64,000 nucleotides of DNA, from assembly GCA_013239625.1 (NCBI GenBank), contig MU057344.1, positions 1,800,276 to 1,864,275 of the forward strand, read 5' to 3'. Below are positions 17,601-20,600 of the stretch, in pieces. This DNA comes from Lama guanicoe (taxonomy: Eukaryota). Position numbers and translations under genes: made by a program. How positions within the stretch are numbered: position 1 is the stretch's first letter; every line of letters begins with the position of its first letter. The notes beneath the pieces were generated by a model, which searched no databases, was not told the DNA's origin, and saw nothing but the letters and a program-made list of their open reading frames with translations.

Positions 17601-20600
17601 TGGGCAGGGGGCCAGCCGCTCACCTCGGCCACAGTCCTCGCCCTGGTAGCCGGCAGGACACTGCTCCCCACACTTGCCACTCACGGGGTCACAGGTCACG
17701 CCCAGGGGGCAGGTACACGCCTGCTGGCACCCCAGTCCAAAGAAGCCCGGCTCGCACTCTGCAGGGGAGAAGGGAGAGGGTCCTGCAGGGTCCAGCCAGC
17801 CCCGGAGCCTTGCAGGCACAGCGGCCGTCCCTCCTGTCGCACGCACGTGTGTTCCTCTGCTCACACCGGCACTCTTCTGAGCAGCCCGGCCCGAAGGCCC
17901 ATGGGGGGCAGGCTGCACCCACAGAACTGTAAGGTAGGCCTGCCCACTGCCTCCCCCATCCAGGGTCCCCAGCCCCGTTCACTGAGCTGTGTCTGGGACC
18001 CCGCGCAGAGCCGCTGGGATCCTGGAGAGCTGTGCCGTCGTGCCGATTTCACAGCCCAGAAGCAGGGACTCAGAGGCTCTGGGATCTGCCCTGGGTCCAG
18101 CGCTTCCCAGCAGGAAACGCTCGGAGTCCCCATTTCCCTGCCTTAAACATCCTTTTACAAAAGCCGCTGGGATGAAGTCCGCTTGCCAGTTACCCAGCTC
18201 TTCTCCACCTGCCACCCGCTCTCCCAGCCTCTCCCATCCCCGGCGTCTGTGGACCCAGGGCGGGTGACCCCACCAGGGGTTCAGGACTCGCCCTTGCAGC
18301 CAGGAAACTCCAAAAGCCCAGATGAGCCCTGCATCCCGGACGCTTCGGAGGGAAGCTTGCCCCTGCCCACACCTGTAGCACCCCCATCAGCCTGGCTGGA
18401 GCTGGGACCAGCCACCTGGACACTTGGAGGCCAGGGCAGTCCAGAGACCCATGGCAGACCTCACACCCCAGCTAGGGACCTCGCTGAGCCCCTGGTCCTC
18501 ATCTGTAAACGGTGACGGTGGAACCCAAGCCGGACCACGGGCAGGAAGGCGCGGGAGCACCTGGCCCATGCTGTGGCACCGCCTCCCGCCCCCAGACACG
18601 CGGCCAGCGGGCGGCAGGACTCACCCAGGTGGCAGAAGCGGCCATAGAGCCCTGGGTCGCAGAGGCAGGCCCCGTAGAGGCGGTGGCACCGGCCCCGGTT
18701 GGCACAGTGGCACTTCTTGCGGCAGTGTTTGCCATAGAAGCCCTTGGGGCAGCCTAGAGAGAGGGGGACTCTTGACTGCCCACCTGGACACGGCCCCCAC
18801 CCGAGGAGATGCTCCAAGGGGCCCAGTGTTCAGCACATGAGGCAGGAATGGCACAGACCACCGGGGCGCAGCCAGAGGGCTTCAGGCCACCAGCAGCCCG
18901 AGGGCCCTGCACCGCAGACAGGGCAGTCCCGGGGGTGGCAAGGGCATCACGAGGGCAGGGCAGGCGTCACGGGAGCCCCAGGGACACGGCCGTCTGCCCT
19001 GGGCCCCCAGGGTCTGTGGCCTGGACGGTGGCCGGGGTGGGAGACCAAGTGCATCCCCAGCACTTGTGGGAGACGCTCTCCCTGTCTGAGCGGCACCTAC
19101 AGCGTTCTGACATCCGTCCCTGGGTGGTCACCCAGCCTGACCTCCGGACCTCACGGGGGAGGACACAGGCCCAAGCACAGGGGGCTCAGGGTGAGGAAGG
19201 GGCGCTGGTTTTCCGTCCCCAGGGGCTTCCCTCCACCTCAGTCTGGCCCCCTTCCTGCCTCCTGAAGGGCCCCAGGGAGCTGGCTCGTGACCCCAAGGTA
19301 CATCCACGTCCTGATCACCAGGCTCTCCAGGTGGGACCATCCCGGATTGTCCGAGGGGCCTAAATCCAACAACTGTCCTTAGAGGAGAAAGGAGGAGGAG
19401 GCTGGAGACAGGAAGAGGGGCCACAGGAGGACGGAGGTAGAGACTGGAGGGAGCGGCCACAAGCCGGGACACGGGGGTCTAGGAACCCGGTACAGAGGCC
19501 CCTGGAAACAGAGGCTCACCTGGGGGGCACACTTTACCCACAGGACCCCAGCGAGACCGAGTCTCCAGGGAGCCACGCCGCATCACAAGGAGAAGTACCA
19601 CCACGCAGACCCTCCATCTGCCGGCATCCCCTGGGCCGTTCAGGGCCCTACACGCACAGCCGCCAGCAGGCGGGGGTTTTCAGCCCTTGCCGGAGTAGAA
19701 GTGGCAGATGGCCAGAGAAGGCAGGGACGGACCAAGAAGCTGACCAGAGGGAGGAGGCCGAAAGCCCTGCCTGGTGCCCCGGGGCTTCGAGCCCTGCCGC
19801 ACAGAGCTCACACTGGCCACCCAGGCGCTGGGGACGGGGCCCGGCCACTACCACCTGCTGCTACGACGGGAAGTCCTTGACACATGAGCTACGTTTGCTG
19901 GCAGAAGGTCTGAGGAGCCGGCCGCCTTCCTTCTGCAGCAGTGGGGGGTCTTCTTCTGAAGCCCAGGAGCTGGGAGGTGGCGCCCCCCCATCCCACCAGG
20001 ACGGCCCCCGGGGCACAGAGGGCTGCACCCACCATCCTCGCAGTGGGCCCCGCTGACACCCGGAGGGCAGCGGCAGGCCCCCGTCACAGGGTCGCAGGTC
20101 CCGCCGTTCTGACAGCTGCAGGAGAGGCTGCAGTTCTTCCCGAAGGTGTCGGGAGGACAAGCTGCAGTGGGACAGAGAGACACGAGGGTCACCAGCCCGC
20201 AGGGCTCTGGGCCCAGGAGTCTCTCCAGAGACCCTGAGACACCATCTGGGGCTCACGCCCCCCCCCCCATCGGCAGCACCTGCCCGGAGCAGCCACCGGT
20301 GGCGCCCGCGCCCCATGTCCCCGCCCACACGCATGGCAGGCATCGCTAATCGATCACCACATCCTCTCCCCCTCTGACCGCCCACCTTCTCAACCAGCAC
20401 TTTCAGAGACAGTCACTGTGGCCTTGAGACAAAACTACCACTGCCATTCGGGCCTGGGGTCGCTGGGCAGGGAGCGGACAGCCTCCGGACAGAGGCTGGG
20501 AGAGCAGTTTTCACGCATTCTCCAGCTACCATCATGCTGCGTGGCTTGGGGAGCCATCGCCCCCCACCCCGAGGTTGTGGGCACGACCAGCCCACCTGCC

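Follow-up and report, generated by a model that had tools for sequence, protein, structure and literature searches.

A probable assembly-specific deletion of the end of one MEGF6 repeat exon in Lama guanicoe, with in-frame exon skipping predicted if the lesion is real

The window, the whole 64,000-nucleotide stretch of the Lama guanicoe assembly that was analysed, carries a gene identified by sequence comparison as MEGF6 (EGFL3), in which one repeat exon (S13) is cut short and runs directly into the end of the following intron. This lesion is probably a deletion specific to the assembly, being either an error or a rare allele, rather than a trait of the species; in a real lesion, splicing would be expected to leave S13 out with the frame kept.

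The MEGF6 gene and its damaged exon

MEGF6 lay on the minus strand as a tandem-exon EGF gene, with EGF-type exons followed by exons encoding an eight-cysteine repeat, 24 of the latter when S13 is included. In protein comparison its exons aligned in the same order as named vertebrate MEGF6 proteins, and S10, S11 and S13 were 83–93% identical to the named proteins of muntjac (P0004), star-nosed mole (P0006) and desman (P0008), with 88–93% identity to muntjac P0004 (89% for S13). The three named proteins and this assembly thus share the exon order, whereas S13 of this assembly lacks its end and donor. Protein searches returned no annotated MEGF6 from L. guanicoe or a close relative among the matches, and a metagenome scan yielded a single locus, from a fish (L002).

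The gene model comprised 33 exons, from the ATG at 39837 to position 7179. All 32 modelled exons other than S13 were intact, with a GT donor and the frame kept, and they joined openly from the ATG at 39837 to 7179. A reading of the locus as a pseudogene was rejected on the grounds that these other 32 exons were intact. Each of the sister repeat exons (23 of 23) was bounded by AG and GT, was of phase 1-1 and encoded eight cysteines.

Several minor features of the gene were recorded. The first coding exon (39837–39669, minus strand) began with MEAPRG, resembled a signal peptide by eye and matched the muntjac N-terminus. EMI-type exons were not found in the window by tblastn with bird and fish N-termini, so that the exon at 39837–39669 may start a shorter isoform. 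The acidic linker exon S9 (21559–21374, minus strand) encoded a run of nine Glu, against four to five in the muntjac, mole and desman proteins. The acceptor at 14573–14554 (minus strand) was unusually G-rich, and its exon (from 14553) was intact in frame and cysteine pattern.

The features around the lesion, in the order of transcription, were:

18625–18753, minus strand: exon S12, intact; its donor is the upstream partner in every outcome
17913–17914, minus strand: AG of the normal S13 acceptor, score 8.4; its use predicts a contig end at 17884, which is where the RNA contigs of a relative stop
17806–17912, minus strand: S13 remnant, a MEGF6 repeat exon, with 94% identity to P0002 across 35 aa; the 135-nt length of the intact exon is taken from fish locus L002
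17805–17809, minus strand: deletion junction, with ~57–58 nt missing (28 exonic nt, the donor and the intron start) and a putative GGCT-like microhomology
17759–17805, minus strand: retained 3′ 47 nt of the S13–S14 intron, with a strong pyrimidine tract (16 of 17), an AG and an acceptor score of 19.3
17624–17758, minus strand: intact exon S14 of 135 nt and phase 1-1; spliced to S15 in the relative's RNA contigs

S13 started at 17912 and ended at 17806, after 107 of its 135 nt. The remnant (CPPWAFG...CACKA) consisted of 35 stop-free codons with seven of the eight cysteines; the last nine codons, the eighth cysteine and the donor were missing from the assembly. At 17806/17805 the exon passed straight into the retained 47 nt at the 3′ end of the intron that follows, and the distance from the S13 acceptor to the S14 acceptor was 154 nt (first base of S14 at 17758). 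The last GT within these 154 nt was at 17819, and the 47 nt before S14 held none. A shifted normal donor was rejected, since GT was absent after 17819. The initial annotation had described a loss of the 3′ end and donor of S13 with the next pyrimidine tract reached directly, no GT in the 47 nt before S14, a 154-nt acceptor distance and a TGA (17691–17689) on read-through, and each of these was recovered from the assembly.

Size, conservation and possible origin of the missing piece

In read-through translations of other mammals the acceptor-to-acceptor distance was 207–253 nt in all 12 cases, two pairs of which were close relatives. Compared with these translations, 53–99 nt are missing here, or 58 nt relative to P0002 and P0132 and 57 nt relative to P0135, the best matches. 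The longer distances in other mammals bear out the earlier proposal that a deletion of some tens of base pairs took the exon end together with the donor. The S13–S14 intron measured 72–118 nt in relatives, and at fish locus L002 S13 was 135 nt long and followed by GTGAG.

A complete S13-type unit, with the motif CxCxxG(F/Y/H/W)xGxxC, was present in 23 of the 24 vertebrate proteins that had a recognisable S12–S13 join (these were MEGF6 or, in some cases, a close paralogue), and loss of the S13 end is therefore unusual. The sole exception was a predicted hoatzin model. Predicted MEGF6 proteins from other drafts (P0033, P0039, and P0059) were damaged at the same spot; the hoatzin model was without the S13 end, that of the white-throated sparrow without S13, and that of Myotis davidii without S11–S14. 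The S13 region of MEGF6 may often be mis-assembled or mis-annotated.

Two comparisons with relatives bear on the junction itself. In one frame, P0002 reads CKA-GFRG...GGRA-PGPAEPCR at the junction region of the window; in another, P0135 and P0136 have an intronic G-L-R, against an R-L-R that spans the junction in the window. Taken together, the two frames point to a GGCT-like word flanking the lost piece on both sides, a putative microhomology deduced from the relatives' translations and not from their DNA. A long repeat was looked for at the deletion junction and was not found. The GC content at the S13 site was 70–72%, and the ~57 bases would have been lost by a jump from one short GGCT-like repeat to the other in DNA of this composition. 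The undecayed state of the remnant, which was 94% identical to P0002 and stop-free, argues for a lesion that is either recent or false.

Assembly error, rare allele or lineage trait

An error made in the library or during assembly has slightly less than an even chance of being the source of the lesion, and is the largest single possibility. A deletion that is common or fixed is doubtful, and a rare germ-line allele of the sequenced animal is somewhat more doubtful still. Real germ-line deletions, too, have the form seen here, with 57 nt cleanly lost at a microhomology. The undecayed remnant, the conservation of the unit from fish to mammals and the fragmented state of the assembly (2.05 Gb in 55,231 contigs) favoured an error or a rare allele over a shared trait. 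Disrupted splice junctions and false indels are among the false gene losses that PMC9516821 links to GC-rich sequence in short-read assemblies. The cases presented there resemble this one in the GC-rich gene, the single damaged exon–intron border, the otherwise intact gene and the fragmented assembly; they differ in that the errors were confirmed by read mapping, whereas here the lesion is known from the assembly alone, and in that they concerned birds, platypus and a fish.

Sequencing runs were consulted for both DNA and RNA. The 14 best DNA runs held 0.91–0.94 of the sampled words, with seven of the 14 tied at 0.94 and none higher; a share of 0.94 fits about three sites private to the window, as it fits filtered words or ordinary SNPs, and the position of such sites is unassignable. 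Contigs from two of these DNA runs were sought over the window, and none aligned. The two RNA runs, from two studies, came from an organism ~96% identical to the window (36 differing letters per ~1,020 in each run). Both covered the flanks of the lesion and left 17654–17883 uncovered; because a filter removes some contigs, the gap speaks neither for nor against the lesion. An exact look-up of five window frames crossing the junction recovered none of the five in the protein collection, where the start and first residue had to match exactly.

A real deletion that is common or fixed in the lineage, with MEGF6 one repeat shorter through S13 skipping, is rather improbable. The lesion is clean, the window contains no N, and a search of the assembly's own genome found the stretch at one place, with no copy of a second haplotype or other allele, all of which would suit such a deletion, as would the 1404 codons left open by an in-frame skip. 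MEGF6 is a secreted EGF-repeat protein whose function is described as poorly understood (bioRxiv 2020.01.09.900696; PMC7059952). The former reports that a Megf6-deficient mouse has no discernible phenotype and that zebrafish without both megf6 genes are delayed in cartilage and bone formation. The reported tolerance of Megf6 loss in the mouse (bioRxiv 2020.01.09.900696) is in keeping with a fixed deletion, and a real deletion could thereby drift to fixation. Against this stand the S13 remnant, which has not decayed, the retention of the S13 unit from fish to mammals and the absence, among the 14 best DNA runs, of one above 0.94 of words, which fits differences private to the window although they cannot be placed at the junction.

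Both kinds of event are known: deletions that remove the donor of a symmetric exon, and the false appearance of such deletions in draft assemblies. Titles and abstract openings of papers on MEGF6 together with gene loss or exon skipping, or with camel or alpaca, did not mention the lesion, and supplementary gene-loss tables could hold it. If the lesion is an error, it is a reference defect that needs correcting, since it would lead to mis-annotation of MEGF6. A real allele would offer a natural experiment on the handling of an exon that lacks a donor beside a short intron and, in view of the zebrafish phenotype, would be a modest candidate in bone or skin traits.

Predicted splicing outcomes and the proposed rescue acceptor

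Donor-removing deletions in symmetric cassette exons cause in-frame skipping, use of cryptic donors or read-through of a short intron. The lesion in S13 is alike in that a 5′ splice site is lost beside a short intron, among exons of phase 1-1, and in that skipped, cryptic and fused products would compete; here the outcome is predicted only. The matrix used to score splice sites was derived only from this gene, from its 23 sister exons. Real acceptors scored 2.3–17.3 in leave-one-out (n = 23), except for one at -8.1. The S14 acceptor (19.3) was the strongest among 20 AGs scored; the normal S13 acceptor scored 8.4 and an upstream AG at 17927–17928 scored -5.0. The further sites considered were:

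17927–17928, minus strand: upstream AG, the proposed rescue acceptor, score -5.0; in frame with S14, weak
17859–17864, minus strand: cryptic donor GTGAGC in S13, score 6.1; defines a 48-nt exon which, joined to S14, gives a TAG, with the stop at codon 557
17841–17846, minus strand: cryptic donor GTGCGT in S13, score 3.7; defines a 66-nt exon, in frame, with a partial repeat
17689–17691, minus strand: TGA of the 289-nt fused exon that starts at the normal acceptor; the next junction is 65 nt further on, and 19 junctions lie downstream

Skipping of S13 is predicted as the likely main productive outcome of a real lesion. Without a donor, S13 would not be defined as an exon, and the S12 donor would join the strong S14 acceptor (18625 to 17758), with the loss of exactly one 45-residue, eight-cysteine repeat unit. 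The earlier statement that skipping keeps the frame, the exons being of phase 1-1, held on assembly of the product, which was open for 1404 codons through 7179. Laminin-type EGF domains have disulfides 1-3, 2-4, 5-6 and 7-8. In Pfam comparison the EGF_laminin domain started at residue 14 of S14 and ran into the next exon, although the hits were weak (for S14, E 0.0038, below the cut-off, which one of two single exons passed). As such domains straddle exon borders, joining S12 to S14 would rebuild a complete one, with six cysteines from S12 and two from S14 making up the whole eight-cysteine domain.

Some transcripts would instead use the normal S13 acceptor, producing the 289-nt read-through exon with its TGA, and would be degraded. 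That a real lesion acts mainly as loss of function in this way, through a premature stop brought by the fused 289-nt exon or by the 48-nt mini-exon, is improbable, and it requires the lesion to be real in the first place. The normal S13 acceptor is intact and scores as real acceptors do, an exon of 289 nt is plausible in size, the stop of the fused exon is followed by the next junction after 65 nt and has 19 junctions downstream, and the better of the two positive-scoring cryptic donors inside S13, both missed in the initial annotation, creates a TAG (6.1). The S14 acceptor is nevertheless far stronger (19.3), which favours direct joining of S12 to S14.

The initial annotation had also proposed a rescue, in which the AG at 17927–17928 is used, S13, the intron remnant and S14 form one 303-nt exon, and the repeat is replaced by a 56-aa, cysteine-free linker read from the alternative frame. 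Its coordinates and the stop-free 303-nt exon with the 56-aa insert were reproduced, and the product would be open for 1460 codons; the proposal that this acceptor is used is very improbable. The AG at 17927 is the first in-frame AG near the normal acceptor, and an in-frame AG within 40 nt occurred in only three of 21 other exon pairs fused by simulation, so that the option is uncommon though not rare. One of the 23 real acceptors scored lower still (-8.1 in leave-one-out), and a weak score is thus compatible with use. By matrix score, however, the rescue acceptor was not strong enough to compete, at -5.0, when the AG 14 nt downstream reached 8.4 and S14 reached 19.3. Besides the AG at 17927 and the normal S14 AG, five further AGs that the initial annotation had missed were in frame and stop-free (six alternatives in total), and the insert would land inside a laminin-type EGF domain.

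The open frame itself is ordinary. The alternative frame was open through the intact exon, its donor and the intron into S14 in seven translations of other mammals (P0134–P0140), which were found with that frame as the query and so demonstrate existence and not frequency. The same frame offset was open in 15 of the 23 sister exons. By these sequence comparisons, the alternative frame is generally open in the GC-rich cysteine exons of this gene. Neither the AG nor the open frame was gained with the lesion, the AG being present in the relative and the frame open in intact orthologues.

The RNA contigs of the relative also speak to the use of the AG at 17927–17928, which the relative carries with no letter difference and no contig break. 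Its intron contigs passed the site unbroken and ended at 17884 in both RNA runs. With assembly words of 31 letters, branching at the normal S13 acceptor predicts an end at 17884 and branching at 17927 an end at 17898; the same arithmetic predicts a 58-nt contig over the S14–S15 junction and a contig that ends at 17653, both of which were observed. From these contig ends, an indirect measure, the relative appears to use the normal S13 acceptor. Its contigs, which drop rare forms and may derive from an intact exon, held no sign of a junction to 17926. With its weak score, its ordinary open frame and an AG that has no sign of use in the relative, the proposed rescue was not supported. The fuller scenario, in which a lineage-wide deletion fused S13 to S14 and the pre-existing AG was used to place a 56-residue, cysteine-free hinge in the laminin-type EGF rod, is likewise very improbable. 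Among the readings considered, only this frame-switch rescue would surprise specialists, and the evidence gathered speaks against it.

The relative's RNA contigs covered intronic sequence at 17300–17653 and 17884–18550 at a depth of 8–16, compared to 27–29 for the S14–S15 junction; this intron coverage is unspliced RNA or library DNA.
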